A stretch of 64,000 bases of DNA, taken from the NCBI GenBank assembly GCA_051251855.1, contig JBPOGI010000004.1:288001-352000 (forward strand), read 5' to 3'. Below the pieces are notes generated by a model. The model worked only from the letters and a program-made list of their open reading frames with translations. It had not been told where the DNA came from and ran no database searches. The translations under genes and the position numbers were made by a program. The stretch is from Roseibacillus sp. (GTDB lineage: Bacteria; Verrucomicrobiota; Verrucomicrobiia; Verrucomicrobiales; Akkermansiaceae). Each line of letters begins with the position of its first letter. Position 1 is the stretch's first letter. Shown in pieces: positions 6,609 through 64,000 of the stretch.

Positions 6609-6627
6609 CTTTCCCTTCAAATTCACC

Positions 6628-6724
6628 ACCTCCTGTTTCCTAGCCCCGACACAGTCGGCCCTGCGGGCGAATTTCTCATGTTCCGTGAGAAATCCGGGCT
6701 AGCAACCCGGAAACAGGAGGTTTT
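6628..6724 (+). terminator. Terminator-like stem with a structured insert (possible MITE) in its loop
   Basis: Outer 13-bp stem ACCTCCTGTTTCC/GGAAACAGGAGGT followed by TTT. The inner segment is bounded by CTAG on both sides and contains three small hairpins. Confidence 0.6.
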
Positions 6725-6778
6725 CTCACCAACTGAAACATCTCATCGAAAAGGAACGTCTCTATAAAGTTCGCCCCT

Positions 6779-42100: not shown

Positions 42101-44032
42101 CTACCCCTCAGTCACCTCACCCGACCGATAAGCTTGTAGTAGATTATTAAGCGAACAAAGCTGCGCCTGAATATCCTCGCTCTCGTGAGTGTCTGCAATC
42201 GTGCGCGCCGGCACGTGCTTCCTCAAATCACGGAGCTTCGGAATCATATCATCATCGCATTCGAGAAAATTCTCAATGGACTCGAAGTGCGAATGCTCCG
42301 CCAATCGAATACCATTTGGGCCCATCACCAGAGTATAACCATGGTCCCCATAGGATTCCGAAAAAGCGCCATCAATGGTCACCGCATTTCCTCCCCGCTT
42401 CACAGGGTCCTCACCCTTCTCAACCTTCACCGGAACATGGCCGTTCACAATCAGAACGTTCTCTTCCACCCCAAACTCACGGCCGACCCTCTTGCAGAAA
42501 TCGGCATCGTGAATCATCCGAAAATATGGATCCTTCACCTCCTTGTGCGTCTCTGGGTCCTCGATGAAATAGCGCTCGAAAGTCGTCATCCGAGTCTTTC
42601 CAAAAAGCGGCGAGTCACCATGAACCCAAAGCCAATAGTAGTAGTCTAAATCATGAGGCGCCGATTGACCTCCCTCTCGATATGTCCGACGCACCATCTG
42701 CTCCAGTTCATAAAAAAGAGCGCCCCCACTGACTTTCTTCCCCTCAACATCAACCTCACGAAAGCTTCCATCCTCATTGGTCGGCACACAGGCATGAAAA
42801 ATAAGCGCCTCATCCCGCTTCAGTGACAAACTCCCCTGACGAACGACGAAAAGCATATGCTCCCAAAGCTGCTGGCTAGAAACAAAAGACTGGCGTAGAC
42901 GATCCATACAAACGCGCTCCTCCTCAGAAAGCGCATAAGGATCAGCCCCATCAATTGTCGGAAAGTTCGTATCCCTTAGCACATGCGACTTCCCGTCGAG
43001 CATGATCGTTCCCTTTTCAAAGTCAATGAGGTGCAACTGGCGTCGATCCTCCATCTTCCATTCCGGATGCCGCTCAATAACGGGACTCGACAATTTCAAC
43101 TCCAGAATCGCAATCGCTTTGTGCATCTTCGCGACCAACTCTTCATCCATAAAGTCCGATGACCGCTTCGGAAAAAAAACCTCTGCCGGATCGTCTCCGT
43201 AAGCCGTCTTTGCCAACTTCGCCAAGGGAGACAGCAAAATCCCGTAACCCTCCTCTAACTGCCATAGCCGCAGGTAGCGTAGCGAAACCCGCAGCACTGT
43301 CGCAATCAGGACTTCCGAACCAAGCGTCGCACCCATCCAAGTAACATCATGATTCCCCCAAGTGAAACTTACTTTAGGCTGATTCTTTAAGTAGTGAATC
43401 ACCCGGTCCCCCCGCTCTCCTCGGTCAAAGAGATCGCCCGCAACGACCACCTCCGAAACAACCAGATTACGCACCAAACGCGACGCCTCATGAAGCGCCG
43501 AAATATCCTGATCATAGTCCCCCAAAGCCTCAATCATCGAATCCACGTAACCCAGGTCACGATTGAAGGAGACCTCATCTAACAGAGCAATATAAAGAAC
43601 CTTAAACTCATCCTTCATCAAACCTAGCAACTCCTCCTTCGTCACCGTCTTCGCTAGCCTTCTCACCAACCGAAACTGCAGGCGAAACAGGCGTTTGGAC
43701 TTCTCCAAGCGCCATTCACGGTTCTGAAGCCGCTCTTGATACGTCCTCATCTTCTCCACCGGATAATAGAGAAAAGCCAACAGGATTCCCTTCTCCTCAT
43801 CATTGAGTTCATCCCCAAACACCTCATTCACGAGATTGCTTAACCCTCCCGAGGCATTGTTCACCACATGGCGCAACTTGCGGTCATCGCCATGCACATC
43901 ACTAATAATGTGGACTCGCCCCTTGGGCAAAGTGAGCTTCGCCTGCAGCAGCGATATCTCCGACATCACCGCAGAGGCGGTCGGAAATTGACGAGCAAGA
44001 AGGCTCAGCGTGGGACCGCAAACTTCGGACAT
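42101..44032 (-). CDS. fbp: Fructose-1,6-bisphosphatase class 3 (Firmicute-type)
   Basis: LPKG..HIISDVHG, VAGDLFDRG, WGNHD, SPLFGK..MTTFERYF, NGHVPVK and IDGAFS. Start likely ATG 44032. Confidence 0.9.
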   Translation of the reverse strand: MSEVCGPTLSLLARQFPTASAVMSEISLLQAKLTLPKGRVHIISDVHGDDRKLRHVVNNASGGLSNLVNEVFGDELNDEEKGILLAFLYYPVEKMRTYQERLQNREWRLEKSKRLFRLQFRLVRRLAKTVTKEELLGLMKDEFKVLYIALLDEVSFNRDLGYVDSMIEALGDYDQDISALHEASRLVRNLVVSEVVVAGDLFDRGERGDRVIHYLKNQPKVSFTWGNHDVTWMGATLGSEVLIATVLRVSLRYLRLWQLEEGYGILLSPLAKLAKTAYGDDPAEVFFPKRSSDFMDEELVAKMHKAIAILELKLSSPVIERHPEWKMEDRRQLHLIDFEKGTIMLDGKSHVLRDTNFPTIDGADPYALSEEERVCMDRLRQSFVSSQQLWEHMLFVVRQGSLSLKRDEALIFHACVPTNEDGSFREVDVEGKKVSGGALFYELEQMVRRTYREGGQSAPHDLDYYYWLWVHGDSPLFGKTRMTTFERYFIEDPETHKEVKDPYFRMIHDADFCKRVGREFGVEENVLIVNGHVPVKVEKGEDPVKRGGNAVTIDGAFSESYGDHGYTLVMGPNGIRLAEHSHFESIENFLECDDDMIPKLRDLRKHVPARTIADTHESEDIQAQLCSLNNLLQAYRSGEVTEG

Positions 44033-44167
44033 GCTCCCAGAGAAAGCACAAACCAATCCAAATGAAAATTCCGAACGCGCCTCTTTACCGCTTCATCCCG
44101 TATTTTCCCGCGTCATGAATGTAGACCTTTCTTGAATATTGAGCTCCAAGAAGAGATTCTTTAAACC

Positions 44168-44491: not shown

Positions 44492-47400
44492 CTACGGAGT
44501 CACGGAAACCTCGGCTCTGACAAAAAGACGAGTCAGTTTGCCGACGATTCCGTCTTCATTGTCAATCGCAGCACGATCGATACTGAAGACGATCTCAGCG
44601 CCTGTCCCTGGGATGCTGGTAATCGGGAACCATTCGATCAAGTCGGGTGACCAAACCAGATGATAGCTGCGACCAGAGACACTCCACCAGCTCACATCCA
44701 CCGTGTTAGCTTGAACTTCAAGAATGCAGACCTGCAAGACATCGCTATTGTCTTGCGGATCCGTCCCAGCCACAAACTCATCCACATTCGACGCTCCGTC
44801 TCCGTCGAGGTCAGTAGCAGCATCCTTGAACCAGTTCGGATCAAGTCCATTCGCGAGTTCATAGACATTTGGCATGCCATCACCGTCGTTGTCCGGGACC
44901 CGAGTAAAAAGCGAAGTAGATTCGGTGCTGCGCAACTGGTCAAGAAGACCCAGAAAATCTTCGCCAGCAAGGGAGACCATCTCACTGCGAATCAAAGAAT
45001 CATTGCTAAAGCCAGCGAGGAGATTCTGGTCTTCCCCAAGGTCAATCGTTTGCTGAAACAGCTGTTTCGGCGTCCCTTGATCGACCCCAATCGGCGAAGT
45101 AATGGGGGCATTCATAGAGTCCCAAGAGGTGCTGTTTCCTCCCCCTCCAGTCGAATCAATGAACTTCCAACCATCGATCGTTTTCAGCCCTAAATGCCCA
45201 CTAATGGAAGACATCACAATCGCTGGCCGCTGGGGCTCTGGCTTCTGCTGACCCCGCAAAAGATTCAGGAAACTCTCTCCGTCTGGAGCCGTTGAGTCTG
45301 GTAAATCGCTGCCAAGATAGGCTGCAATGGTGGCAAAAATGTCCCCCTGCCAAACCGGATAATTGACCTTCATCCCGGCCGCCGCCTGCCCAGGCCAACG
45401 AACCATAAAAGGAACCCGTGTTCCTCCATCCCAGGAATCACGCTTATTACCACGCAACGGTCCATTCGAGTCCGCATTGTTGGCAATGCTATCCGTCATC
45501 GCCCCGGTTTCGGGACCGTTGTCGGCCGTAAAAATGACGAGCGTATTCGACCCAAACCCATTGTCCTCCAGCGCAGTCAACACCCGACCCACTCGGTCAT
45601 CAACTTCGCGCATCCAGTCCGCATAGAGAAAACCATTGGCAACCCCATCACCCACAAATTCCTGCGTGAGCGCCCACGGATAATGCGGCGAGTTCATTGA
45701 GACATAGGCGAAAAATGGATCAGGGTCCCCGCTCGTTGCTCGCTCGGCGATATAGTCTTCCACATCCGAGAAAAGCTGCGGCCCAACATTCACTTGGCTA
45801 TAGGAAGGATCGCCCAGCCCATCACGAGAGCCCTTGCGTCCCAAGACCGGAGCATTGACTTCAGCTCTCGTCCAATAACGGAAAGGATCAGAGTTCAAAG
45901 CGGGACGATAAGCTCCGTTGCCGCCATCAAGAGAAGGATCCCAAAACTGCATGCGGTCATCGATCAGATAAACATAAGGCACGAAGTTGATGGCCGCAGC
46001 ATTGCCCCGAAAATGGTCAAAACCATGATCAACGGCATGAAGTTCCACCGGCCGCTCCCAGTCGACGATCGCAGGATCGGCCGGATTGCCCGTAATCACG
46101 GAACCATCAGTCTCGAAAAAATTCCCTCCCAAGTGCCACTTCCCGAAGGCAGCGGTGTCGTACTGCTGGGTCTTCAGAAACTCGGCAATCGTGACGTCGC
46201 TCACCCTCGGCAAATCATCCCCGCCAATTTGTCCACCCCAATTGCCCGTGATACCATTGAACTCGCGCCAGTTGTATTTACCGGTGAGCAAAGCATAGCG
46301 ACTGGGAGTGCAAACCGCATTCCCCGAATGACCTTGAGTGAAGGTGACCCCGTCAGTCGAGATTGAATCAATATGCGGAGTGAGGGCCGGACTCGTGGTT
46401 CCGTAAATACTCCCGTAAGCCGAGATATCGCCAAAGCCCAAGTCATCCGCATAGATGATCACAATGTTAGGCTTGGCCACGGCGGGTCGGTGGTCGGGAC
46501 AATCATCCCCATCGTTAGGATTGGAGCCAAAAGCGACCTCAGCCTCGTCTCGGTAACTGTCATTGTCGCTATCCACAAAGGGAAAAAGGGGTCCTGTGTT
46601 CGGCGGCTGTCGATTTGGATCGGTGCCCGCTAGAATCTCATCATTGTCGTCCACGCCATCGCCATCAGAATCTGGTTCCAGCGGATCGGTCGCGTCTCCC
46701 GGAGGCCCCGATTGCACACCCGCCACCCAAGGATTGAGGGTTCCATTCACTTCCTGACCATCATTGAGCCCGTCGTCATCAGAATCACTATCCTGAGGAT
46801 CGGTGCCAGCAGAGTATTCTTCCAAATTGGTCAAACCATCCGCACCTCCCACCGCATCGTCATCAATCGCGGCATCGTTGACATTAGGATTTAAGCCATT
46901 GGCGACTTCGTAGTTATCAGGCATGCCATCATCATCGCTGTCCAATGCGCTCGAGATGACCAAACGAGGATTGCTGAACCCCGCCGCATTAGACTGATTC
47001 TCCCCCACAAAGACAGCGAGCCCGAAGTTGTCGGTGGAACCATTGACCCAGCCCTCCACAATGCTTGTGACATCCGCAGATACGGAGGCGGGAGGAGCTA
47101 AGGCCGAGATATCCGCAATCAAGGAGACACGGTCACTCGCACTAGTAATGCCCCAACTGTGAAGCGGAACCGTCGATGTTCCATCCCATGCCGAGTTGGT
47201 CACTCGCCCCACTACCGCAGACGCGCTGTTGAGATTATTGAGCTGAAAATCGTAGTCAGCGGTGAAGGCAACCGAAAAACCCGGGCTATTGAAATCGGCG
47301 ACGGTCAAAGCGCTCACATCAAAGTTTAGAAAGGAACTCGCTCGGCGATTCGTCTGTGTCGCTGAAAGTCTTTCTCGCGCGTAAATATCAGAATCCGCTG

Positions 47401-48262
47401 GCAAGTCACCGCTATCGACATTGGAAGCTCCTGTCACCGGACCATTGGGCGGCGTTTGCGCATCAGTTGTAAAAACAGTCGTTGGTAGAATATCGTTTAA
47501 AGAAGAGATTAAAGGCTCACCGTTCACTGAAATGGAAGTAACGTCGATAACGGTGCCCGCTTCATTGGCTTGCTGGTAGACCATGGAAGCGAAGACAGAA
47601 CCGTCGTTTGTGAAAGTGGAAAAATCAAAAGCGGTGGGCCAAGAGCCTTGAGCGTCGACCGAACCATCAATCCCAAGAAGGCAGACTTCCCAGCCACTGG
47701 CGTCAAAGCGATAATCGACGGTATAGCCGTCTTGCAAGCTGGCTAAGGTGTAGCTTCCCAAGGAAGAAATGATCACTTCGTTTCCACTAGCATTATCGTA
47801 AACAAAATTAACCACTCCCCCAAGATAGCGAATTCCGAGAGCCCATCCATCAGCTCCGCCTGCGTTCTGCGAGTTGTTCCAGAGCTCCGTGTTATTTCCT
47901 GCCAGCCCAGCCCAATGACCGTTGTTAGTAGGCTGACCGTTGGAATCGATGATGCTCCCAATCGTGATAGATGCGGTCAGAAGAGAAAACTCCGCAGCAT
48001 TGAACGAACCATTACTCACGCAACCTACCGCTCCACTCGATGCTTCATCGACAGACATGGTGGCTTGACCGGTAGCGTTGTCCCAAGCTGGATTTCCAAT
48101 CGAGTTTGAAATCACACTGAAGTCTTCCAGCAGACCATCGGCTGTATTGTTGAAGGAGGCATCGATGATCACCTCGCTAGCTGGAGTGATACTATCCGCA
48201 AAGAGAGAACTAGGCGCCAAAGCCAAGAAAAGAGAGAGAGAGCGGGAGAAGATAATCATCAT
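44492..48262 (-). CDS. Secreted multidomain formylglycine-dependent sulfatase (domain A + domain B + DxDxDG repeats + sulfatase + C-terminal module)
   Basis: Signal peptide; PNIVIIYADDLGFGD, CTPSR, GKWHLG, DNG and GNKRDSWDGGTRVP; TSP3-like DxDxDGxxDxxE repeats. Confidence 0.92.
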   Translation of the reverse strand: MMIIFSRSLSLFLALAPSSLFADSITPASEVIIDASFNNTADGLLEDFSVISNSIGNPAWDNATGQATMSVDEASSGAVGCVSNGSFNAAEFSLLTASITIGSIIDSNGQPTNNGHWAGLAGNNTELWNNSQNAGGADGWALGIRYLGGVVNFVYDNASGNEVIISSLGSYTLASLQDGYTVDYRFDASGWEVCLLGIDGSVDAQGSWPTAFDFSTFTNDGSVFASMVYQQANEAGTVIDVTSISVNGEPLISSLNDILPTTVFTTDAQTPPNGPVTGASNVDSGDLPADSDIYARERLSATQTNRRASSFLNFDVSALTVADFNSPGFSVAFTADYDFQLNNLNSASAVVGRVTNSAWDGTSTVPLHSWGITSASDRVSLIADISALAPPASVSADVTSIVEGWVNGSTDNFGLAVFVGENQSNAAGFSNPRLVISSALDSDDDGMPDNYEVANGLNPNVNDAAIDDDAVGGADGLTNLEEYSAGTDPQDSDSDDDGLNDGQEVNGTLNPWVAGVQSGPPGDATDPLEPDSDGDGVDDNDEILAGTDPNRQPPNTGPLFPFVDSDNDSYRDEAEVAFGSNPNDGDDCPDHRPAVAKPNIVIIYADDLGFGDISAYGSIYGTTSPALTPHIDSISTDGVTFTQGHSGNAVCTPSRYALLTGKYNWREFNGITGNWGGQIGGDDLPRVSDVTIAEFLKTQQYDTAAFGKWHLGGNFFETDGSVITGNPADPAIVDWERPVELHAVDHGFDHFRGNAAAINFVPYVYLIDDRMQFWDPSLDGGNGAYRPALNSDPFRYWTRAEVNAPVLGRKGSRDGLGDPSYSQVNVGPQLFSDVEDYIAERATSGDPDPFFAYVSMNSPHYPWALTQEFVGDGVANGFLYADWMREVDDRVGRVLTALEDNGFGSNTLVIFTADNGPETGAMTDSIANNADSNGPLRGNKRDSWDGGTRVPFMVRWPGQAAAGMKVNYPVWQGDIFATIAAYLGSDLPDSTAPDGESFLNLLRGQQKPEPQRPAIVMSSISGHLGLKTIDGWKFIDSTGGGGNSTSWDSMNAPITSPIGVDQGTPKQLFQQTIDLGEDQNLLAGFSNDSLIRSEMVSLAGEDFLGLLDQLRSTESTSLFTRVPDNDGDGMPNVYELANGLDPNWFKDAATDLDGDGASNVDEFVAGTDPQDNSDVLQVCILEVQANTVDVSWWSVSGRSYHLVWSPDLIEWFPITSIPGTGAEIVFSIDRAAIDNEDGIVGKLTRLFVRAEVSVTP

Positions 48263-48290
48263 TGAGGAAAGGGGAAAGAAATCGGTTCAG

Positions 48291-48329
48291 AAAAAAGGCC
48301 GGGAACTCTATCAAAAGAATCCCCAGCCT
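48291..48329 (-). terminator. Intra-operon terminator between the repeat protein and the sulfatase (copy 2)
   Basis: Minus-strand GC hairpin followed by TTTTTT; homologous to 56931-56969. Confidence 0.7.
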
Positions 48330-48354
48330 TAAAAGTCACTAACGTAATTTCACC

Positions 48355-50757
48355 TTAATTAGGAAGCTCTTCGAGTCGATAGAAAGCTTCCGGATTGGTT
48401 GCAGAGGGATCTGAGAAACTAGCCGTTGCTGCACCAGCCACGCGAGGCCCATCAACTGTAGACGGGAAACCGTCTTGGAGGTTATCTGACCGAACCAATT
48501 GATAGCTCGCCGTTGGGTCAAGGTTCTCGAAGGTAATATCGAATGCCGTCCCATTGAATGAGCAGGAAACAACTGCAATATCCGCCGGTGGCCCGCTGGT
48601 CGTCAAGTCGTCAGTTTGACGAACTTGCATGAAGTTCAAAATGTTTGCCCCATTTCCAGACGGGTCCTGTCCCGCATTAAATTGCCTGACATCGAAGACT
48701 TGCACCGACTCCGTTGCGACAAACGAACCCGTGAAAAGGATAGCCGGGTTCGCAGATCCTCCATAAATACTATTCGTCGCCCCAACGGGGTCGGCAGCCA
48801 CTTCGCCTCCGACTCCATCAATGGTATAGAATCGGTTGACTAAAGTCCCCCCGTTCCGATCATCTGCACGCCCGATTTGAATCACATAAGGGAGACCAGG
48901 AGTGAGCCCAAAAATCGCAACCCGAGGCTGCGCGCCACCCGCCGGAGCACCCGTCCAACTGCTCTCGATGAGAGGGCTAAGCGCGGGGTCTTCGTCGTCG
49001 TAGAACGTCCCTATATTCGTTGTCCCTGGCCCCGTTGAAATCGTGATCAAGGTTACCGTATTGTCGGTCGCATTTGTTCCGATGTCATCAACAGTAGCTT
49101 CGAACGGAATTCCATTCACTGTTGTTGCGATGCCACCATAGTTTTCCGCAAAGAGAAGAGGACCATTCGTGATGAGATTGTATTGGCTGGCTAGCGCCGA
49201 CACAGTCCAAGTTATGGACGCTAAAGTAGGAACTGAGGCAACGTCATCGGGATCTGAGCCGGCATCAATTTCGACACTATCATAGAACCCATCATCGTCC
49301 GTGTCGGCCAAAGCGGGATCGGACACACCACCGTTCACCTCTGTTGCATCAGAAAGATTGTCTCCATCGGTATCAGGATTTAAGGGATCGGTTATCAATA
49401 CCGGAGACAGAGGGTTTGTGAGGTCAAATTCTTGTCCGTCGAGAAGGGTATCATCATCAGAATCCGAGTCATTAGGGTCAGTTCCAAATTGCTGCTCTCC
49501 AAAGTTGTCGAGCAGATCCATATCGGGATCTCCAAGGTCTCCATTGTCTGGATCGATATCGCCGTTGTCTGTTGGGTCAAGACTGTTGGAAATCTCAAAG
49601 GCATCAAGAAGGAAGTCATCGTCGGTATCGTCGGTCAAAGGGTTGGTGACAAAACCATTGGAACCATCGATTTCCTCAAAATCGGTCAGTCCATCACCAT
49701 CGGAATCAGGATTCAAGGGGTCGGTTTGCAATCCCGGTGCTGAGGTTGCGACCGTACCCGGCTGATCACTCTGAAAGGGATTCAAATTATTACTCCCAGG
49801 AAGGACCACTTCTTCTCCGTCGAGCAAGCCATCATCATCGGAATCACTGTCTTGAGGATTGGTGTTGGAGTTGAACTCTTGTAGATTGGTTAGGCCATCG
49901 GGCCCGCCGTTCGTATCGTTATCGAGAGACGCGTCTGCTGCGTCATTGGGATTCAGATTGTTGACGAGCTCGTAGGCGTCAGGCATTCCATCCATGTCGG
50001 TATCCGTATTTGGAATCTGAACCACCTTGACACTGGCGAGGTCAATCGATCCTGCCCCTCCCTGAGTGGACGCCACCACCCGCATCGTGCTCACAAAGTC
50101 GCTGAAGTCGAAATTAACATCACTCCAAATTCCAGCGCCTCCCGTGACGGCGTTCCCGCCAGCGTCTTCGAGCCCAGTAAAGTCGATGTTCCAATTCGTT
50201 GCCGAGATTGTTAGCACCACCGTGCATCCGTCGCCAAAACTTGCTTGATCAACAGTAGTGAAAGCCGGACTCCAAGTCTTCCCTCCCGTAACCGTCTTGT
50301 AGGCAGGAGCCGTAGTTCCATTGCTGTTTGTTCCTCGAACTCCAAATCCAAAACTAGGTCCCAGATTATTCCAAAGGTTAGGTCCCATGTCGTCACCAGC
50401 TTGCCCTGCCTGCAATCCAAAGAAGATTCCGTTAGATCTGCCCGGATCGGCAGACTCCACCACGAAGGTCAATTCAAGGGAATCGGAGCCAAGTGAAGGC
50501 ACATCGATGGTGAGGTCAGAAACAGCCGAAGAAGTGGAACTCAGGTGTGTTCCCCGGCTAAGTAAACCAGTCGCCTGGTCCCAAGTGCCACCGGTCGTAA
50601 ACGACTGATTATTCGTCAGGAGAGTGAAGTCTTCGTTGGTATCATTTGCGACCGCGTCGAAAGTCGCGTCGATCAGGGTCGTTTGCCCTTGGAGCATGGC
50701 TGCCGAAGCCGTCGCAAGGACGACGGAAGTCACACTTTTGGAGTAGTTTGATTTCAT
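48355..50757 (-). CDS. Secreted TSP3-like Ca-binding repeat protein (domain A + repeats + unknown domain + C-terminal module)
   Basis: Start reassigned to ATG 50757 (MKSNYSK...signal peptide). Many DSDxDGLxDxxE repeats; the C-terminal half is paralogous to 56994..59327. Confidence 0.85.
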   Translation of the reverse strand: MKSNYSKSVTSVVLATASAAMLQGQTTLIDATFDAVANDTNEDFTLLTNNQSFTTGGTWDQATGLLSRGTHLSSTSSAVSDLTIDVPSLGSDSLELTFVVESADPGRSNGIFFGLQAGQAGDDMGPNLWNNLGPSFGFGVRGTNSNGTTAPAYKTVTGGKTWSPAFTTVDQASFGDGCTVVLTISATNWNIDFTGLEDAGGNAVTGGAGIWSDVNFDFSDFVSTMRVVASTQGGAGSIDLASVKVVQIPNTDTDMDGMPDAYELVNNLNPNDAADASLDNDTNGGPDGLTNLQEFNSNTNPQDSDSDDDGLLDGEEVVLPGSNNLNPFQSDQPGTVATSAPGLQTDPLNPDSDGDGLTDFEEIDGSNGFVTNPLTDDTDDDFLLDAFEISNSLDPTDNGDIDPDNGDLGDPDMDLLDNFGEQQFGTDPNDSDSDDDTLLDGQEFDLTNPLSPVLITDPLNPDTDGDNLSDATEVNGGVSDPALADTDDDGFYDSVEIDAGSDPDDVASVPTLASITWTVSALASQYNLITNGPLLFAENYGGIATTVNGIPFEATVDDIGTNATDNTVTLITISTGPGTTNIGTFYDDEDPALSPLIESSWTGAPAGGAQPRVAIFGLTPGLPYVIQIGRADDRNGGTLVNRFYTIDGVGGEVAADPVGATNSIYGGSANPAILFTGSFVATESVQVFDVRQFNAGQDPSGNGANILNFMQVRQTDDLTTSGPPADIAVVSCSFNGTAFDITFENLDPTASYQLVRSDNLQDGFPSTVDGPRVAGAATASFSDPSATNPEAFYRLEELPN

Positions 50758-50993
50758 GGTTTTATGGGGATTTTTCGATTCAACGGTCAAAAATCGGTTA
50801 ATAAACTATGAAAGCTCCCTGAGGGTGAGCAATCAAAACCTCCAAAAACTGCCATTGGCAGGTAGAAATCACACAAAAAATTTCATCTCCGACAACGGAG
50901 AAAAGATAAGAATCCAAGACTGGAAAGCGCGAACTGAAGAGCGACTCCCTCTTACCTTCACCATCCTCATTGAACGCCCCGCGAAAATTCGCC

Positions 50994-53048
50994 CTACAGT
51001 GAACTTTGGGCACCAACCTCAACAATCTCGAAGTCAATCGTCCCTGTGATTCGGTCGCGAATCATCTGAGCGGACTGTTTTTGGGGATCAATCCGAATCA
51101 CGTTGAGTGAAGGCAAGTGCAGGTCATTCTTCAGTCGAATCCCCGCGCATTTCGTAAGATCGAGTTCACTCATCGTGAGGCCCTTCAAACTCGCAAGATC
51201 AAACTCCTCTGCCACTTCCAAAACAAGAGTTCGAGGTTCAAGGTAGCGCAAAACGCATTCACCTGAACCACCCGCATCAGAGATCAACTTCAACGCTCTT
51301 TCTGAACGAAGGGAGACCGTTGAGTCAGCATCGCTCATTTCGAGCTCAATCACGATGTTGGCCGGATTTAAATATTCTAGCAGGCTTAGAACGACTCTCT
51401 CATAAGATTCCTTCGAACGGCGAAGGGCGGCATCATAAGAAATCATACGCTCAATGACCGGGCCTTGCTCGGGATCGATCTCTCGAGCTGTCTCAATAAA
51501 CGAGCAGAGATGATCCAAGGAAGGTCTGCGAGCACGGTCAAAATTGAAACTCGGAAAAGACTCCGCAAAATGCATGTAGGAGTAGCGACCGCTTTCCTCT
51601 TTCAGCGGATAATTCAACGCTTCCTCAAAATTGAGCTGGATAACGTTGAGAGTAAAAATCTGATACTGCGCAGCTCCCGAATCTGGATCGAGAGCATGGG
51701 CATGGGCGGCAAGCCTCTTCGCCTCCCGAATACTCTTCATCGGGGTATCAAAAATCCCGAGATTCTTAAGACTTTTCACTGAAGAAAGGAGTGAATTGGA
51801 AAGAGCGATCCGCCTCTCTTCAGAATCCGAGAGGGTCTCAAGGTACAAGTTGTTCGCGAGCTCGGCTTCCGACGCGTATTGATTGGCAAGATCAGATTGA
51901 TCGAGCACCGAGGCACGGAGAAAGTTCAGCCTTTCAATAAAGAGGGTGCTCAGTGCCGTCAGCAAAATCAGGGATAAAAATGAAATCAAAACTAGGGTTC
52001 GATTTCGCGTCACAAAGAGCCGTGCTTCTCTTAGAAAATTAGGAGCTTCCGCGTCAGTGGAAAATCCATCCAAGAAGCGGTGAACTTCCTCCCTCAATTC
52101 AGAAACAGATTCGTATCGCTCGCCGGGGTTCTTTGCCAGAGCCTTCGTGGTCACTGCACCCAAGCTCGGAGGCACTTTACATTCAGGATAGCTCTCGCAG
52201 GGGTTGGGCACTTGCGAACTGGCCGTTGCATCCAAAATAGAGCGAGGCCCCCCCTTAAAAGGAGGCTCTCCGGTAAGGATGGCATGTAAAATACATCCTA
52301 AGGAAAACACGTCCGTGCGGGAGTCCTTGCTCCCTCCCTTTTCTACTTGCTCAGGAGCCATATAGCCGGGCGTCCCCTTGATTTCACCGACCAAGGTCAT
52401 ATTGTCCAAAGTCTCAGTGAGAGAAAGGTCCGCAGTCTCCTCGTCCACTTGCGAAACCAACTTCCCAAGACCCCAGTCACAAACTAAGACCTCACCGAAG
52501 GCGTCACATTGAATATTCTGAGGTTTTAAATCGAGATGAATCACTTCCTGAGAATGCGCATAGCCAACCGCATCACAGACCTTCAGAAAATCTTGCAGGA
52601 GAGATCGTCGGCTTCGACTCTTGTCCTTAATCAAATGGCCCAAGGTCGTATTCCCCTTTAAATCCATCGTGAAAAATGGCCGACCAAAAGAATCGATCCC
52701 AACATCATGGACGTTGATAATATTGGGATGACTGAGCGAAGACGTGAGCCATGCTTCGTTGACAAAGATATCGTAGAACTCCGCCCCTCGTTCCTCACGG
52801 AGCCGAGCCATCGCCACCCAACGTCGGGTACGATTATCGAAGGCTCGCAAGACCTCCTTAACGCCTCCCTTTCCTAACAATTCTTGATCCTCGTATCGGG
52901 TCGAAGTCTCGGAGAGCTCCAAATAGGAAGGACAAAGTCCCGCTAACCCTTCAGCTTCCAGCCGCGTGGCTTCCTGATAGGCCTGAATCAACCGATAATC
53001 ATTTCGGTAGTCGTCTTGACCTACCGCATTCCCGCTTCTCTGACTCAT
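50994..53048 (-). CDS. Membrane-anchored Hanks-type Ser/Thr protein kinase with atypical lysine placement
   Basis: GKGGVK, VAMA, HPNI, HLDLKPQN, DWG, GTPGYMAPEQ and DVFSLG; one TM helix; C-terminal putative sensor domain. Confidence 0.92.
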   Translation of the reverse strand: MSQRSGNAVGQDDYRNDYRLIQAYQEATRLEAEGLAGLCPSYLELSETSTRYEDQELLGKGGVKEVLRAFDNRTRRWVAMARLREERGAEFYDIFVNEAWLTSSLSHPNIINVHDVGIDSFGRPFFTMDLKGNTTLGHLIKDKSRSRRSLLQDFLKVCDAVGYAHSQEVIHLDLKPQNIQCDAFGEVLVCDWGLGKLVSQVDEETADLSLTETLDNMTLVGEIKGTPGYMAPEQVEKGGSKDSRTDVFSLGCILHAILTGEPPFKGGPRSILDATASSQVPNPCESYPECKVPPSLGAVTTKALAKNPGERYESVSELREEVHRFLDGFSTDAEAPNFLREARLFVTRNRTLVLISFLSLILLTALSTLFIERLNFLRASVLDQSDLANQYASEAELANNLYLETLSDSEERRIALSNSLLSSVKSLKNLGIFDTPMKSIREAKRLAAHAHALDPDSGAAQYQIFTLNVIQLNFEEALNYPLKEESGRYSYMHFAESFPSFNFDRARRPSLDHLCSFIETAREIDPEQGPVIERMISYDAALRRSKESYERVVLSLLEYLNPANIVIELEMSDADSTVSLRSERALKLISDAGGSGECVLRYLEPRTLVLEVAEEFDLASLKGLTMSELDLTKCAGIRLKNDLHLPSLNVIRIDPQKQSAQMIRDRITGTIDFEIVEVGAQSSL

Positions 53049-53638
53049 GACTCGAGTTCGGAAGTGAGATTTCTAATCTCGAGATAAAGTCGCTTCTTCA
53101 CCCGCTTCTTCAGCGTGTAAACGGTCGCTACAGTCAACTTCGTTTTTTCTGCGATTTGAGCCGCAGAATGCCCATCAAGGCCCAGCTCAAAGACTGCAAT
53201 GGCTTGTCCTTCGAATGAAGCACGAACCCGCTCCATGGCGAGACTTCCCACATAAGCCGCCCACTCCCTTTCGATAACCTTATCGATGTCAGGCGCTTTC
53301 AATTCGTCTTGTTCACCCTGCTCGTTCGACACCCTATCCAAGCATCTCTTCAGACTATAACGCTTTCGAAAATAGCTGTTGGCCTTATTCCTCACAATCG
53401 TGCTCAACCAAGTGCGAAAACGAGCCCTGTCCCGATCGTAGCGAGGAAGGTCACGAGTGAGGGCTATGAGGATTTGCTGGCTGAGGTCCTCCAAGTCATC
53501 ACGAGGCACCCCAAGTTGGTTCAGCACGCATAGGATAAAGCGACGGTATTGTTGAACAAATTGCTCCCACGCCTTCCCGTCGTCCAAATCGGTGGCTCGC
53601 TTGAGAAGAGAATGGTGAGTTTGAAACGTGGAGGACAT
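53045..53638 (-). CDS. ECF sigma factor
   Basis: AWEQFVQQY, EDLSQ and FRTWL (sigma2); C-terminal HTH SAAQIAE..VATVY (sigma4); ATGA-coupled to the kinase. Confidence 0.92.
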   Translation of the reverse strand: MSSTFQTHHSLLKRATDLDDGKAWEQFVQQYRRFILCVLNQLGVPRDDLEDLSQQILIALTRDLPRYDRDRARFRTWLSTIVRNKANSYFRKRYSLKRCLDRVSNEQGEQDELKAPDIDKVIEREWAAYVGSLAMERVRASFEGQAIAVFELGLDGHSAAQIAEKTKLTVATVYTLKKRVKKRLYLEIRNLTSELES

Positions 53639-53812
53639 CACTGAGAAGGAGCAAGCGGAAGGCGCTTAAAAACTCTGCTATTCCTCCCAGCTTAGAGAGA
53701 ACCACCATCATTTAAAGAAAATGTTCCCGTTTTCATTCAATCATGGAACTCCATCAAAATGCTCCTCGACGGAATCGTTACCAATTAAAGCTTCGAAGCC
53801 GAAAGAAGGCCA

Positions 53813-56800
53813 CTACTCGGAAAGTGTCACTTCAACTCTGACAAAGAGTGCATCCAAATTTCCGATGACTCCGTCCTCATTGTCGATCGCCATCCGATCA
53901 AGGTTGAAGGAAAGCTCCCCTCCCGTTCCTAGCATACTGGTAATCGGAAACCACTCCTCTAAGTCAGTCGACCAAACAAGGTCGTAGCTCCGGCCAGCAA
54001 CGCTCGGCCAGCTCACGACCACATTGGCCCCCTGGAGGTCAAAGTCACTAATACAGAAGAAATCACCGTTGTTTGTCGGATCGGTTCCAGCCACAAACTC
54101 GTCCACATTCGACGCGCCATCTCCATCGAGGTCAGTAGCAGCATCGAGTGGCCAATCAGGGTCGAGCCCGTTGGCTTGCTCATAGCTATTGGGGAGAGTG
54201 TCGCCATCATTGTCCGGAATGCGGGGAAAAAGGGCGGTAGACTCATTGATGCGCAAATCGTCGAGCAGGCCGAGTAAGTCGCGACCAGTAAGGGCGGTGA
54301 TCTCATTTCGAATGCTCGTTTCATCAGTAAAGTTCATAATGAGGTTACCGTCTTCGCCCAAGTCGAGGGGCATGTTGAAGAGTTGTTTCGGTGTCCCCCG
54401 GTTGATGCCAGCCACATTGGAAAACTCAGTATTGAACGAATCCCAAGAGGTGTCCGCACTTCCACCGGTGGCGTCGATGAATTTCCAGCCGTCGAAGGTC
54501 TTCAAAGCCAAATCGCCTCGTTGCGCACTCAACACGATTGCTTCGCGCTGGGGCGAAGGTTTCGCTTGGCCCCGCAGTAAATTCAGGAAGCTTTCCCCAT
54601 CGGGAGCAGTCGAATCAGGAAGATTGGCTCCGAGGTAAGCGGCAATCGTGGCAAAGATATCACCTTGCCAAATCGGGTCGGTCACCTTCATCCCTGCCGC
54701 CGCTTGACCAGGCCAGCGGACCATAAAGGGAACCCGCGTGCCGCCATCATAAGTCTCACGTTTATGACCTCGCAAGGGACCATTGGGATCAGCCCCGCGT
54801 GTCAGGCTCTCCCTTTGCATATCGTGTTCGGGGCCATTGTCGGAGGTGAAGACCACCATTGTGTTCGGTCCAAAGCCATTGTTATCGATAGCATCCAGAA
54901 TCCGTCCCACTCGATCATCCACTTCGGTCATCCAATCCGCAAAGACGAGGGCTCGATTGCTATTGCCCCCATAGAAGGCATCCGTCACGGCCCAAGGGCG
55001 ATGCGGTGAATGAAGAGGAAGATAGACAAAGAAAGGATCGGAATCGCCACTGCTTGCGCGGTCCGCAAAGTAGTTTTCGGCATCTTCGACCAGCCGCGGC
55101 CCGAGGTCAACTTGACTGTAGGAGGGATCGCCCAGACCCGCGCGTGAGCCCCTCGCTCCTCTGACGGGAGCATTGAGTTCGCCGGTGGTGAACCAACGGA
55201 AGGGGTCGGTATTGAGTGCGTCTCGGTAGTCCCCCGCGCCCCCATTGAGAGTGGTATCCCAGAATTGGAGGCGATCTTCTTTGAGATAAACGTAGGGGGA
55301 AAAGTTGATAGCGACGGCATTACCGCGAAAAACATCAAAGCCGTTATCGACAGCATGAAAATCCACCGTGCGCTCCCAATCGACTTCACTAGGATCGGAC
55401 GGATTGTCAGATATACGAGTCCCGTTACGGCGATAGATCGCACCGCCGAGGTGCCACTTACCGATAGCGGCGGTGTCGTATTGTTGCGTTTTAAGAAACT
55501 CCGCAATGGTGACGTCGGACACTCGTGGCAACTCATCGCCATTAATGGTGCCCCCGTAGTTGCCGGTAATATTATCGAATTCCCGCCAGTTGTATTTTGC
55601 AGTCAGCAAAGCGTAGCGGCTGGGAGTGCAGACCCCGTTGCCGGAGTGCCCTTGAGTGAAGACCACGCCATCCTGAGCCAAGGCATCAATGTTGGGCGTA
55701 GGCGCACTGCTGGTCGTTCCGAACAAGTTGCCATAGGCAGAAATATCGCCAAACCCGAGGTCGTCGGCGTAGATGATCACCACGTTAGGGCGAGTGGTAG
55801 GAGGACGATGATCGGGAATATCGGTGGCGTCGTCAGGCAAGGAACCAAAGGCCACTTCAGCCTCATCGCGATAGCTATCGTTGTCACTATCGACGAAGGG
55901 AAAAATCGGCCCCGTGTTCGGCGGGAGCCTATTCGGATCAGTACCCGCCAGAATCTCGGCGTTGTCATCGACGCCATCGCCATCAGAATCAGGCTCGAGA
56001 GGATCGGTCGCCTCTCCGGGAGGTCCAGACTGCACCCCTGCCACCCAAGGGTTGAGCGTGCCATTCACTTCCTGCCCGTCGTTCAGCCCGTCGTCATCGG
56101 AATCACTATCTTGCGGATCCGTGCCGGCGTTAAATTCCTCCAAATTGGTCAAACCATCCGCACCTCCCATTGCATCGTTGTCGAGCGCGGCATCATTGAC
56201 ATTTGGATTGAGACCATTGGCGGTTTCATAACTGTCCGGCATGCCGTCACCATCGGTGTCTGGCGAGTTCGAGACCACCAGCCGAGGGTTGCTGAATCCC
56301 GCGGCATTGGACTCCAAGTCACCGACGAAAACAACGAGACCAAAGTTATCGATCGTTCCATTCACCCAGCCCGTCACGATGCTCGTGACATCTAACGAAA
56401 CTGAGGCTGGTGGGGCAGACGCCGAGATATCAACGATGAGGCTCGCCCGATCTCCCGAGGTGGTGATGCCCCAAGAGTGCTCAGGAAGGGTCGTCGTGCC
56501 ATCCCAAGCACTATCGGTGACGCGGCCAACGACCGCTGCGGTGCTATTGAGGTTGTTCAGCTGGAAATCGTAGTCAGCAGTGAAGGAAACCGAAAACCCT
56601 GGGCTATTGAGGTCGGCCGCAGTCAAGGTGCTGACATCAAAATTCAGAAAGGCGCTGATGCGGCGGTCGGTCTGAGTGGCACTGCGTCGTTCACGAATGT
56701 AGATATCCGAGTCGGCCGGCGAGTCTCCACTATTCACGCTGGCAGAACCCATTACAGGCGGACTTTGAGCATCGGTTGTAAAGAGAGTCGTCGGGAGAAT

Positions 56801-56863
56801 ATCAATGGCAAAGAGGTAGGAGGGCACCATCGAGGTGACCAGAATCAGAAAAGGAGTTCGCAT
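53813..56863 (-). CDS. Secreted multidomain sulfatase (domain B + DxDxDG repeats + sulfatase + C-terminal module)
   Basis: PNVVIIYADDLGFGD, CTPSR, GKWHLG and GHKRETYDGGTRVP; close paralogue of 44492..48262. Confidence 0.92.
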   Translation of the reverse strand: MRTPFLILVTSMVPSYLFAIDILPTTLFTTDAQSPPVMGSASVNSGDSPADSDIYIRERRSATQTDRRISAFLNFDVSTLTAADLNSPGFSVSFTADYDFQLNNLNSTAAVVGRVTDSAWDGTTTLPEHSWGITTSGDRASLIVDISASAPPASVSLDVTSIVTGWVNGTIDNFGLVVFVGDLESNAAGFSNPRLVVSNSPDTDGDGMPDSYETANGLNPNVNDAALDNDAMGGADGLTNLEEFNAGTDPQDSDSDDDGLNDGQEVNGTLNPWVAGVQSGPPGEATDPLEPDSDGDGVDDNAEILAGTDPNRLPPNTGPIFPFVDSDNDSYRDEAEVAFGSLPDDATDIPDHRPPTTRPNVVIIYADDLGFGDISAYGNLFGTTSSAPTPNIDALAQDGVVFTQGHSGNGVCTPSRYALLTAKYNWREFDNITGNYGGTINGDELPRVSDVTIAEFLKTQQYDTAAIGKWHLGGAIYRRNGTRISDNPSDPSEVDWERTVDFHAVDNGFDVFRGNAVAINFSPYVYLKEDRLQFWDTTLNGGAGDYRDALNTDPFRWFTTGELNAPVRGARGSRAGLGDPSYSQVDLGPRLVEDAENYFADRASSGDSDPFFVYLPLHSPHRPWAVTDAFYGGNSNRALVFADWMTEVDDRVGRILDAIDNNGFGPNTMVVFTSDNGPEHDMQRESLTRGADPNGPLRGHKRETYDGGTRVPFMVRWPGQAAAGMKVTDPIWQGDIFATIAAYLGANLPDSTAPDGESFLNLLRGQAKPSPQREAIVLSAQRGDLALKTFDGWKFIDATGGSADTSWDSFNTEFSNVAGINRGTPKQLFNMPLDLGEDGNLIMNFTDETSIRNEITALTGRDLLGLLDDLRINESTALFPRIPDNDGDTLPNSYEQANGLDPDWPLDAATDLDGDGASNVDEFVAGTDPTNNGDFFCISDFDLQGANVVVSWPSVAGRSYDLVWSTDLEEWFPITSMLGTGGELSFNLDRMAIDNEDGVIGNLDALFVRVEVTLSE

Positions 56864-56930
56864 AGAAGTGAAAGAAAGCGGTTGGGAGAGAGCGCGTATG
56901 TAGGCTAGAGGAAAAGGAAATTTAGTTTAG

Positions 56931-56969
56931 AAAAAAGGCCGGGAACCCTCTCAAAAGAGCTCCCGGCCT
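56931..56969 (-). terminator. Intra-operon terminator between the repeat protein and the sulfatase (copy 1)
   Basis: Minus strand AGGCCGGGAGCTCT-tttg-AGAGGGTTCCCGGCC-TTTTTT. Confidence 0.75.
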
Positions 56970-56993
56970 AAAGATGAATGAAGGCATGAACAA

Positions 56994-59327
56994 CTAGTTA
57001 GGCATCAATTCGAGTTGGTAGAAGGCCTCTGGATTTGTTGCCGTTGAATCTTCAAAAGTATCCGAAGCTGCATCCGGAGCACGAGGCCCATCAACCACAG
57101 TGGGAAACCCATCTTGAAGGTTCTCTGAACGAACCAATTGGTAAGAGGCAGTTGGGTCCAGGTTCTCGAAGGAAACGACGAAGATGGAACCATTGAGTTC
57201 GCAAGAGACAATGGTGGCATCTGCAGGAGGAGGTGGAGGGATCTCATCGGTCTGACGAACTTGGATGAAGCTCATGCCCATGGTGGGGAGCGCACCCCCA
57301 ATACGAGACTCCACCAATTCGAAACTTTGCACAGTCGCAGTCGCGATGAAGCCTCCCGTGAAGAGAATCGCCGGATTTTCTGCACCTGAAAAGATGGTGT
57401 TCGTCGCTCCAACAGGGTCAGTAGCGACGTCGCCCCCGACTCCGTCAACGGTGACGAAACTTCTGGTAACGGCGCCAATACTACGATCATCTGTGCGTCC
57501 AATTTGAATCGCATAGGGAAGACCTGGAGTGAGACCAAAGATGCTCACCGTTCGCTCGGCTCCGCCATTCCAGATACTCTCGAGAAGAGGTGAGAAAGCA
57601 GGGTCTTCGTCGTCGTATAAGCTCACGTCTCCCAAACTACCCAAGGCACCGGTGATAAGGTTAGCACTCGTCCTCGGGCCAAAATTATCGATGGCACTGG
57701 CAAAAGAGATGCCGTTGACGGTTGCCGCTGGTCCATTGAGATTATCCGCAAAGAGCAAGGATCCCGAGGTGAGGAGGTCCAATTCGCTGGTTAACTCACT
57801 CGCAGTCCAAGCGATGGCGGCAAGAGTGGGCGTCGAAGTAATCTCATTAGGATCACTCCCTGCGGCCACCTCCACGCCGTCTGAGAATGTATCAAAATCG
57901 CTATCCGCATTTGTAGCGTCTGTAAGGCCTCCGTTGACTTCAACATCATCGCCCAAACCATCTCCGTCAGTATCGACGTCCGCTGGGTCTGTCACCAAGG
58001 TTGGAACTGCGGCATTCGTGGTATCGAGCTCCCCTACGCCACCAGCAGAAAAATCAGCTCCGTCGAGAAGGGTGTCTCCGTCGGTATCGTCATTGTTAGG
58101 ATCTATCCCGAACAGCTGCTCATTGAAGTTATCAACGGTGTCCATATCAGGATCTCCAAATTCGCCATTAGCGCCACTAATATCTGTTGGATCAAGACCA
58201 TTAGAGGCTTCAAAGTTATCGAGGAGAAAGTCGCCATCGGTATCATTCGAATTGGGGTTCGTTACCACGCTGATGGCGCTCCCTCCAGGCGGGGTGTAAG
58301 TGAGACTGAGGAGTTCAACCCCATCGAGAATACCATCATTGTCACTGTCTGGATTGAAAGGATCGGTCACTAAACCAGGAACACCAGGGCCACCGGTGGG
58401 GGCGTCACCTGCGCCATCGGTGAGGTAGGGATTGGCTGAGCCATCAAGCTCTGCGCCATCGTTGAGAGTGTCGTCGTCGGTGTCACTATCTTGGGGGTCG
58501 GTTCCAGCTAGGAACTCCTCCAAGTTGGTGAGTCCGTCAGGGCCACCATCGGCATCATTATCCACATCAGCATCAGCAGGATTATTAATATCAAGAGGGT
58601 TGGCAGGATCGGTATTGGCGATCTCGTATTCGTCAGGCATGCCATCGTCGTCGCTGTCGAGAATAATAGAAAGGGTGAGTTCAGGGTTATTGAAGGCAGC
58701 CGCTTGAGCTTCCAGTCGATCAATAAAGAGCACGAATCCGAAGTTGGGATTCGTGCCATCGGCCCAGCCCTGAACGATCGTGGTGACGTCGATCTCTAAG
58801 GTTTGACCTGTCGGCAAGAGGTCCTTGATGTCCGCAATAAACGGAATCGCATCGGCCGCATCGGTAATGCCATAGGTGTGAAGCGGAGGGAGAGTGGGAG
58901 TGGCCACATCGCTGTCCCAAGCTGCGGTGGTCACCCGCCCAACAGTGGCTGACGACGGTCCGTTGACCGCATTCAATTGAGCCACATACTCAAGGGTGAG
59001 GGTGGCAGAAAAATCAGGGCTGGAAAACAGAGCAGAAAGCGCCGGGTCGGTCAGGTCAAACTGGAGGAAAGAGCTGATCCGACGGTTGTTTTGTCCCGCA
59101 TTTCGTCTTTCGCGAATAGGAAAGTCGCCGGTCGTGAGGTCAGTAACGACGAGGCTGGGGGCAGTGGTTGATGCGGTGGGCCCGACATTTTGAGGAGTGA
59201 GGTTGTCTGTCACTGCGGTATCGACCGGAGCAAGGGTGACATCTGATTGAGCGTTCACCGTGAACGCAGTTGAGACAAAGCTCAGAATGCCAAGGAGACA
59301 AATGGGAATGGATTTCGACGGTTTCAT
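56994..59327 (-). CDS. Secreted TSP3-like Ca-binding repeat protein (domain B + repeats + unknown domain + C-terminal module)
   Basis: Signal peptide; RERR..Q.NRRISSFLQFD...DVTTIVQGWADGTNPNFGF (DNRLRE-like); DxDxDG repeats. Confidence 0.85.
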   Translation of the reverse strand: MKPSKSIPICLLGILSFVSTAFTVNAQSDVTLAPVDTAVTDNLTPQNVGPTASTTAPSLVVTDLTTGDFPIRERRNAGQNNRRISSFLQFDLTDPALSALFSSPDFSATLTLEYVAQLNAVNGPSSATVGRVTTAAWDSDVATPTLPPLHTYGITDAADAIPFIADIKDLLPTGQTLEIDVTTIVQGWADGTNPNFGFVLFIDRLEAQAAAFNNPELTLSIILDSDDDGMPDEYEIANTDPANPLDINNPADADVDNDADGGPDGLTNLEEFLAGTDPQDSDTDDDTLNDGAELDGSANPYLTDGAGDAPTGGPGVPGLVTDPFNPDSDNDGILDGVELLSLTYTPPGGSAISVVTNPNSNDTDGDFLLDNFEASNGLDPTDISGANGEFGDPDMDTVDNFNEQLFGIDPNNDDTDGDTLLDGADFSAGGVGELDTTNAAVPTLVTDPADVDTDGDGLGDDVEVNGGLTDATNADSDFDTFSDGVEVAAGSDPNEITSTPTLAAIAWTASELTSELDLLTSGSLLFADNLNGPAATVNGISFASAIDNFGPRTSANLITGALGSLGDVSLYDDEDPAFSPLLESIWNGGAERTVSIFGLTPGLPYAIQIGRTDDRSIGAVTRSFVTVDGVGGDVATDPVGATNTIFSGAENPAILFTGGFIATATVQSFELVESRIGGALPTMGMSFIQVRQTDEIPPPPPADATIVSCELNGSIFVVSFENLDPTASYQLVRSENLQDGFPTVVDGPRAPDAASDTFEDSTATNPEAFYQLELMPN

Positions 59328-59954: not shown

Positions 59955-60733
59955 ATGAGCCCAATTCATCTTCCGCTTTTGTCTCTCGGTTTTGTCTCTC
60001 GGTTTTGTCTCTCGGTTTTGTCTGCGTTACTGCCTCTCTCGCTCAATCCGCTTCGTTTTTTCCAACCGTGGTGACCTCAGTTGATGATTTAGGAGACACC
60101 GCGCCAACCGCAGGAAATATTGGGGAACCACAAGTGAGTAACGGCATGGGCGGTTTTGTCCCCACCGGTAACGCTTTCACGGTCGCGGCCCGGTCGCGCA
60201 CCAACCTCAACCAGAATAACCGGCAAATCGTAACCGTTGTCGATTTTAATGTGAGCTCCTTGACTATCGCTGAGGTGAGTGATCCAGCCTTCGTGGCGAC
60301 CCTTGCTTTGGACTATGTTGGGCAGTTAAACGATCTCAATGGTCCCATTGGGGTTTCGGTCGGACAGGTGGCTTCGAATGCCGCGCTGAATTTTGATTTA
60401 GGCTATGATGACGGCGACGGAGGCAGCACCGCAGGAACGATTGCACTCAACACAACAACGATTCTGGACGTTGGGGCTGGCGCTACTCCTAGCGGTGCGG
60501 TAGCGACTGGCGACAGTGTCCCATACACGGTAGATGTCACCCCCATCATCGTTGATTGGTTCAATAATCCGACTAATAACAATGGGCTTATCTTTTTCAT
60601 GGACGATGCCGGCGCAGCACAGGGCGCTTACTTTAACAACCTGCAAATCACCACTGCGGTGCCTGAACCTTCCACTGCATTGCTTGGTTGCTTAGCGCTT
60701 GCGGGACTGATTGGTGCACGGAAGCGAGGCTAG
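59955..60733 (+). CDS. PEP-CTERM surface protein, currently frameshifted in its signal peptide by a tandem repeat
   Basis: C-terminal VPEPSTALLGCLALAGLIGARKRG sorting signal. ATG 59955 is out of frame with the body by 26 bp, equal to two extra repeat units. TTG 60005 is an alternative in-frame start. Confidence 0.85.
59977..60023 (+). repeat. 13-bp tandem repeat (TTTTGTCTCTCGG) x3 plus an 8-bp partial copy
   Basis: Exact copies at 59977, 59990 and 60003; partial TTTTGTCT at 60016. Confidence 0.95.

Positions 60734-61328: not shown

Positions 61329-64000
<2,672 letters not shown>

Follow-up and report, generated by a model that had tools for sequence, protein, structure and literature searches.

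Can a Hanks-type protein kinase that has lost the lysine of strand beta3 still transfer phosphate, and what would its target be? The question is raised by a gene in a 64,000-nucleotide stretch of Roseibacillus sp. DNA (Verrucomicrobiota; assembly GCA_051251855.1, contig JBPOGI010000004.1, positions 288,001 to 352,000 of the forward strand). This whole stretch is called the window below, and coordinates are those of the window unless a locus or contig handle precedes them. The gene (50994..53048, minus strand, written (-) hereafter) encodes a Ser/Thr kinase of 684 aa whose kinase domain comprises residues 52-326 (Pkinase match, E 8e-36), and it lies downstream of a gene for an extracytoplasmic function (ECF) sigma factor. 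A first-pass annotation, made from the letters alone, had proposed an active bacterial kinase that converged on the lysine arrangement of the eukaryotic WNK (With No lysine) kinases and that controls, through the sigma factor, the sulfatase genes on either side. The reading favored here, with a probability of about 0.6, is that the kinase is active by means of a lysine in its glycine-rich loop, Lys64, and switches on the upstream ECF by phosphorylation.

The protein is readily recognized as a kinase. PF00069 (Pkinase) scores 124 bits against a cut-off of 31.7, and a Pkinase domain with a PknB-like fold is combined with an alphaC Glu, the catalytic Asp, Lys and Asn, a metal-binding Asp, and an APE motif. 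Of the Hanks-type features, the beta3 Lys is missing, with Ala81 at the Lys position of VAIK. A HMMER alignment to Mycobacterium tuberculosis PknB sets gkggvkev on GFGGMSEV and vamarl on VAVKVL. This places Ala81 (codon 52806-52808) at the beta3 site of the canonical catalytic Lys, within VAMA (residues 78-81, 52806..52817 (-)), and Lys64 (codon 52857-52859) at the third-Gly position of the loop GKGGVKEV (residues 59-66, 52851..52874 (-)), exactly as the annotation had read these two motifs. WNK residue numbers, by comparison, are taken from the papers rather than from a residue-level alignment to WNK1. The motifs that had been listed as intact are all found in the sequence and are near-universal in the family: alphaC Glu98 in FVNEA (52755..52757 (-)), which is the predicted partner of Lys64, the catalytic loop HLDLKPQN (residues 171-178, 52515..52538 (-)), the metal-binding motif DWG (residues 191-193, 52470..52478 (-)), and APE (residues 231-233). 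The kinase is classed as non-RD because its catalytic loop reads HLD, not HRD, and its gatekeeper is Met128.

Conservation of the two sites was followed in 519 distinct kinase domains, pooled from two protein searches, the 150 best representatives at 50% identity, 80 genome loci, and this genome. Lys64 is present in 390 of them, with Ala (386), Thr (3), or Gly (1) as the beta3 residue; the beta3 Lys is present in 119, none of which carries Lys64; and the remaining 10 are gapped or degenerate. Among the pooled domains the two lysines are mutually exclusive, and the WNK-like placement first seen in a single protein is a strictly conserved trait. It is not due to chance in this kinase, because 119 of the 120 best homologues share both Lys64 and Ala81, the other one being without an N-lobe. 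The swap also occurs in 368 of the 374 domains grouped by HLD plus DWG, a criterion that uses neither lysine site. Median pairwise identity among the 390 Lys64 domains is 46%, and their catalytic residues are nonetheless kept: His171, Asp173, Asn178, and Asp191 in all 390, Glu98 and Lys175 in 389, Leu172 of HLD in 376, and the GT/GS and PE motifs together with the other catalytic residues in 388-390. Over 53 loci, Lys64 is encoded 28 times by AAA and 25 times by AAG. No intermediate carrying both lysines was found in the pooled domains, including those from a search started from a basal member. A short Cellvibrionaceae kinase with DWG (L070:7893-8882) has its Gly-loop Lys one position earlier (GGKS) and keeps the beta3 Lys too.

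The origin of the swap was approached with a quick IQ-TREE tree of 107 kinase domains, which contains no WNK sequences and is supported by the Shimodaira-Hasegawa-like approximate likelihood-ratio test (SH-aLRT) only, without bootstrap. The 56 swapped domains form one clade (SH-aLRT 99) nested in canonical kinases, most with DWG, and the trait changes once on the tree. The best sequence match is PknB (E 1e-39, 33% identity), no WNK appears in the list of the 60 best matches, and a search with the N-lobe gives E 0.014 for WNK1 versus 4e-8 for PknA. From this far closer affinity to PknB and PknA, and from the nesting among bacterial kinases that have the beta3 Lys, we infer that the swapped clade arose in bacteria independently of WNK, in line with the convergence that had been suggested. 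Its named members belong to Verrucomicrobiota, Kiritimatiellota, and Lentisphaerota, with few from Planctomycetota and one Omnitrophota record, and the closest named protein is that of Roseibacillus persicicus (76% identity). The swap is present in 124 of the 150 best 50%-identity representatives, hence in at least 124 clusters at this level of identity, and three of the 18 kinase matches in this genome, one of them a weak match, are swapped kinases. Basal Victivallales members (L050, L051, L052) are about 435 aa long and lie behind a ClpX-like gene, recognized by eye, with no ECF of the partner clade nearby.

The rest of the protein has the layout predicted of a membrane receptor. In an AlphaFold2 model (mean predicted local distance difference test score, pLDDT, 85.6), three short helices at the N-terminus precede the kinase domain, which is followed by a long helix (residues 350-399) and then by a C-terminal domain. 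The model superposes on PknB (1mru) with a TM-score of 0.87 by target length and a root-mean-square deviation of 2.1, and in it Lys64 opens strand beta2. The N-terminal helices (residues 18-47, 52908..52997 (-)) are a candidate sigma-docking element; over 234 homologues, Leu20 is conserved in 199, Tyr or Phe24 in 216, and Leu45 in 215, and Pro40 is also conserved. A membrane helix followed by an extracytoplasmic domain had been noticed at the outset, and both are borne out as predictions. Residues 353-371 (51936..51992 (-)) are the sole segment of such hydropathy (2.52), and 204 of the 219 homologues of at least 600 aa have exactly one hydrophobic segment after the kinase domain. The predicted sensor beyond it (residues 405-684, 50997..51836 (-)) would consist of helices resembling tetratricopeptide repeats (TPR), followed by a region resembling leucine-rich repeats (LRR). 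Folded alone, the C-terminal domain reaches a pLDDT of 95; it resembles TPR proteins with Z scores of up to 12.2, a value within the range of common helical arrangements, and its second half resembles LRR_4 with an Atlas score of 0.88, which is at the level of a lead. Pfam LRR_4 matches are also found on many basal relatives. The predicted picture is that of a cytoplasmic kinase of PknB-like fold with an outer TPR-like plus LRR-like domain. PASTA repeats are absent from the outer domain, and the PASTA kinase family NF033483 scores 183 against a cut-off of 450.

Several known kinases help to place this active site. Cation shifts from PKA position 72 to position 55 have been described for WNK and CAK-chloro (PMC1821047), and also for POMK (PMC13519141, PMC10211241) and WNK (PMC4718504). 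WNK1-4 share with the present family the absence of the beta3 Lys, a Lys at the third Gly-loop position (PKA 55, PMC1821047), and the retention of the alphaC Glu and catalytic Asps. They differ in that WNK1 has the HRD Arg (PMC1821047), whereas the Roseibacillus kinase is a non-RD membrane receptor. At the ATP site the family, by inference, operates in the manner of WNK without belonging to the WNK kinases. POMK (SGK196) likewise moved its Lys to beta2 independently, but it is a sugar kinase without the alphaC Glu that is kept here; CAK-chloro, with Arg55 and Met72 (PMC1821047), belongs to a small-molecule kinase family and also lacks this Glu. With PknB-type kinases the clade shares the order of kinase, membrane helix, and outer domain, which is the commonest bacterial layout (bioRxiv 2025.01.12.632604), but it differs from them in having the Lys on beta2 rather than beta3, HLD for HRD, DWG for DFG, and a TPR/LRR-like outer domain.

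The proposed target is encoded immediately upstream. The ECF sigma factor (198 aa, 53045..53641 (-)) has sigma70 regions 2 and 4, and its stop codon TGA (53047-53045) overlaps the kinase ATG (53048-53046), so the ATGA coupling that had been pointed out is real. Among 25 NCBIfam families listed for it, only the generic TIGR02937 is above the cut-off. The link recurs across the swapped clade. Among the 43 swapped-kinase loci that have 800 bp or more of sequence to either side (one of them, L053, having a broken N-lobe in which the lysine is unreadable), an ECF of the same clade adjoins the kinase in 37, being upstream in 23, convergent in 12, and downstream in two; two more loci have it elsewhere. 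The same ECF clade is adjacent to none of 39 other kinase domains. Seen from the ECF side, where 17 loci were taken from 18 strong matches in other genomes, a swapped kinase adjoins the ECF in 15; some of these loci may duplicate kinase-side ones. The partner ECF clade is patchy, with matches in four of 120 other genomes of the phylum, one of which holds nine. The third swapped kinase of this genome is intact, but the ECF that precedes it (C11:63784-64359, (-)) has two in-frame stops, TAG and TGA, and is either a pseudogene or an assembly error. In a Kiritimatiellales-type subgroup (L028, L033, L035, L037, L039, L083), kinase and ECF converge tail to tail, the loop reads GGEK, and several of the loci lie behind an HAD-like gene. 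L086 contains a second copy of its ECF some 2.5 kb away (6577-6999), identical in the N-terminal stretch but incomplete because the region ends there. Two apparent fusions were discarded: a metagenomic 600-aa chain with ECF and kinase (P0034), which may be an artefact since its C-terminus looks frameshifted, and an apparent 958-aa ECF frame, which is not a kinase fusion.

Two conserved elements of this ECF bear on how it could be controlled. Its N-terminal T8-H-H-S11-L12 motif (53606..53620 (-)) is a candidate phosphorylation or docking site: Thr8 and Leu12 are invariant in 42 ECFs, and position 11 is Ser or Thr in 37 of 37. In this genome, leaving aside the broken ECF, the motif T-x-x-S/T-L occurs in nine of 10 ECFs adjacent to a kinase, swapped or canonical, versus two of 22 others. 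The acidic DLED (residues 49-52, 53486..53497 (-)) corresponds to the DAED-like motif and is retained, as the annotation had stressed in contrasting it with EcfP; Asp52 is found in 36 and Asp49 in 33 of 37 ECFs. Kinase-coupled ECFs, including ones that keep a DAED-like motif, are already known, and those kinase-associated groups other than ECF43 are described as keeping it (PMC8999054, PMC7826278). ECF43 (EcfP/PknT), ECF59, ECF61, ECF62, ECF217, and ECF283 resemble the present system in having a membrane kinase at +1 and no anti-sigma gene. ECF43 differs in that a Ser/Thr motif replaces DAED (PMC8999054), whereas DLED is kept here. ECF59, ECF61, ECF62, and ECF217 also have the membrane kinase beside the ECF without an anti-sigma gene, as does this locus, but they are listed as 100% Planctomycetes (PMC7826278), whereas the present clade is mostly from Verrucomicrobiota, Kiritimatiellota, and Lentisphaerota, a comparison made by group description. 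In this genome, moreover, eight kinases with the canonical lysine also have an adjacent ECF on the same strand. Together with the known DAED-keeping groups, this weakens the earlier idea of a special signalling class.

In the mechanism that we favor, a ligand at the outer domain would bring kinases together. Lys64, on beta2, would reach into the room that the small beta3 residue leaves free, pair with Glu98, and anchor the phosphates of ATP, likely yielding an active non-RD kinase. The target would be the Thr8/Ser11 motif at the N-terminus of the ECF, not the acidic DLED, and the activated ECF would transcribe the neighboring genes for secreted proteins and sulfatases, which is the weakest step. 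Precedents exist for two of these steps: the same Lys shift yields active enzymes in WNK and POMK (PMC10211241, PMC1821047), and EcfP is phosphorylated directly by its co-encoded kinase (PMC8999054). In POMK the reverse exchange, which puts the Lys back on beta3, works too (PMC10211241). Judged from its sequence, the kinase is likely active. That it phosphorylates the ECF, with the N-terminal motif as the probable site, is the less secure part, which we consider rather probable overall.

Several points weigh against this reading. The domain set was drawn from top hits and is hence biased rather than a random sample. The co-variation of the loop Lys with loss of the beta3 Lys, which the annotation had offered as a test, does appear in the counts (390 versus 119, no overlap), but because the trait changes once on the tree it amounts to one fixed event and not to repeated evidence. 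The partner ECF clade is absent from four of the 43 swapped-kinase loci, and for two of the 17 ECFs the surrounding 1.3-4.5 kb or so contains no kinase. Since the ECF here keeps its acidic motif, the EcfP mechanism does not transfer directly. Thr8 is a conserved candidate and the motif around it a pointer to a site of phosphorylation or docking rather than a proof, the ECFs that share it being kin. The adjacency of the sulfatase genes, finally, is weak evidence when set against the genome baseline given below.

The kinase could also be active with Lys64 and still act mainly as an anti-sigma factor, its N-terminal helices holding a competent ECF at the membrane until autophosphorylation releases it. 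The ECF does keep the acidic motif by which ordinary ECFs bind polymerase, the locus has no separate anti-sigma gene, the N-terminal helices are hydrophobic and conserved, and the ATGA coupling would fit a one-to-one complex. The invariant Thr8, the Ser or Thr at position 11, and the enrichment of the motif in kinase-adjacent ECFs are left unexplained by such a role, however, and the genes are convergent, so not co-translated, in 12 of the 43 loci; we consider it unlikely. A nucleotide-binding pseudokinase or scaffold, in which Lys64 helps to hold ATP and no phosphate is transferred, seems more improbable still. Loss of the beta3 Lys satisfies the sequence definition of a pseudokinase (PMC12599244), the protein is non-RD, and its activity is deduced from residues. 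Yet the remaining catalytic residues persist almost without exception, as do the GT/GS and PE motifs, and in most of the seven bacterial pseudokinase families on record the Asp of HRD or DFG has gone too (bioRxiv 2025.01.12.632604).

The two remaining alternatives concern the vacated site itself. The residue after the metal-binding Asp191 is Trp in 382 and Phe in eight of the 390 Lys64 domains. This is the DFG-Phe site, which we take to be that of Leu369 in WNK1 (DLG motif). Most canonical relatives likewise have Trp or Phe there; Trp occupies the site in 63 of the 119, and being common among them it predates the swap. A chloride or salt sensor of the WNK kind, with the beta3 site as a halide pocket, would have in its favor that the beta3 residue is always small in the family and that the unusual Lys position of WNK1 is proposed to permit halide binding (PMC4718504, PMC7606576). 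In WNK1, chloride binding involves Leu369, and L369F abolishes chloride sensitivity (PMC7606576); with Trp or Phe throughout at the presumed equivalent site, and with an outer sensor domain of its own, the family is most improbable as a chloride sensor, and the analogy drawn in the annotation loses force. Arg82, the Arg of VAMAR, could in principle supply the cation, leaving Lys64 incidental. It occurs in 106 of 119 close homologues, yet only 161 of the 390 Lys64 domains have it; a basic residue, Lys or Arg, stands there in 193, and Val, Ile, Glu, and Thr are frequent. Strand alternation should also turn residue 82 away from the pocket faced by Ala79 and Ala81, and this substitution, which the annotation had named as a possible refutation, is scarcely credible.

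The flanking genes are candidates for regulation by the ECF. An upstream block (53813..59327 (-)) comprises a 777-aa protein (56994-59327) whose start resembles a signal peptide and which weakly matches TSP3 repeats, a hairpin (56936-56969), and a TSP3-repeat sulfatase (53813-56863). A downstream block (44492..50790 (-)) duplicates it with an 811-aa protein (48355-50790), a hairpin (48295-48330), and a sulfatase (44492-48262), so that the same two-gene block stands on either side of the ECF/kinase pair. The identities are 53% for the protein pair and 72% for the sulfatase pair, and both hairpins are strong, similar in sequence, and have a T-run. Homologues of the block genes adjoin the ECF or kinase in seven other loci (L001, L002, L005, L093, L094, L096, L097). 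The genome, on the other hand, has 98 sulfatase-like open reading frames (ORFs); among 2000 random 18-kb segments, 572 hold at least one and 180 (9%) at least two, and the two paralogous kinase/ECF pairs of this genome have one and no sulfatase nearby. A sulfatase is present in 15 of 54 family loci. Of 90 neighboring genes, 54 were scanned, with apparent repeated housekeeping genes and wrong-frame ORFs omitted by eye; 20 of these neighbors have carbohydrate-related Pfam matches and 20 have no match, counts that come without a baseline. No shared promoter motif emerged when 16 regions downstream of kinases were searched for gapped words; the best word (count 10, versus 7-8 in ten shuffles) was rejected as a low-complexity T/A word, and 17 further regions read by eye had nothing in common. 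A sigma70 scan gave 16 sites versus 11.8 +/- 3.7 expected. Control of the sulfatase genes by the ECF, as the annotation had it, is thus weakened and stays plausible on synteny. Ordinary neighbors in the window are a Firmicute-type fructose-1,6-bisphosphatase (42101-44056), a PEP-CTERM protein (60005-60733), and the large subunit of carbamoyl-phosphate synthase (61329-64000), the last recognized from its sequence.

The clade appears undescribed in the literature searched. An atlas (bioRxiv 2025.01.12.632604) and a review (PMC12599244) describe seven bacterial pseudokinase families, ActPs1-3, GLW, CP1, DYD, and DLHK. All have lost the beta3 Lys, and none is described there with a Gly-loop Lys and intact catalytic Asps; their taxa differ as well. 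The main-text motifs (beta3 Arg, GLW, DYD, loss of the HRD or DFG Asp) find no match in this kinase when compared by description, and the main text of both sources does not mention Verrucomicrobia or Planctomycetes. Two papers on Kiritimatiellia and Pontiella, checked by term, hold nothing on the clade; the supplements of the atlas, outside the search, may bear on novelty. The move of the cation is known from WNK, POMK, and CAK-chloro; what is, as far as searched, undescribed is a clade of bacterial Hanks receptor kinases that has a WNK-type active site and is paired with its own ECF clade. Tentatively, and with less confidence than in the phosphorylation of the ECF by its kinase, one may go further and see here a large, undescribed clade of bacterial receptor kinases with an independently evolved WNK active site and a TPR/LRR-like outer domain, which activates a dedicated ECF clade through phosphorylation of an N-terminal Thr, by a route distinct from EcfP, and controls secreted polysaccharide-degrading genes in bacteria of the PVC (Planctomycetes-Verrucomicrobia-Chlamydiae) type.

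According to PMC1821047, no family of eukaryotic-type protein kinases other than WNK is functional without the beta3 Lys. In a bacterial protein-kinase clade with this swap, nature would have repeated the WNK active site independently, and one can ask there directly whether moving the Lys is enough to confer chloride sensing or whether further changes were required. Sequence rules file such proteins as pseudokinases, and the clade would accordingly be mis-called dead. Finally, Thr8 and Ser11 of the partner ECF offer a concrete, testable site for a question posed in PMC8999054, namely how kinase-coupled ECFs that keep the DAED motif are controlled.

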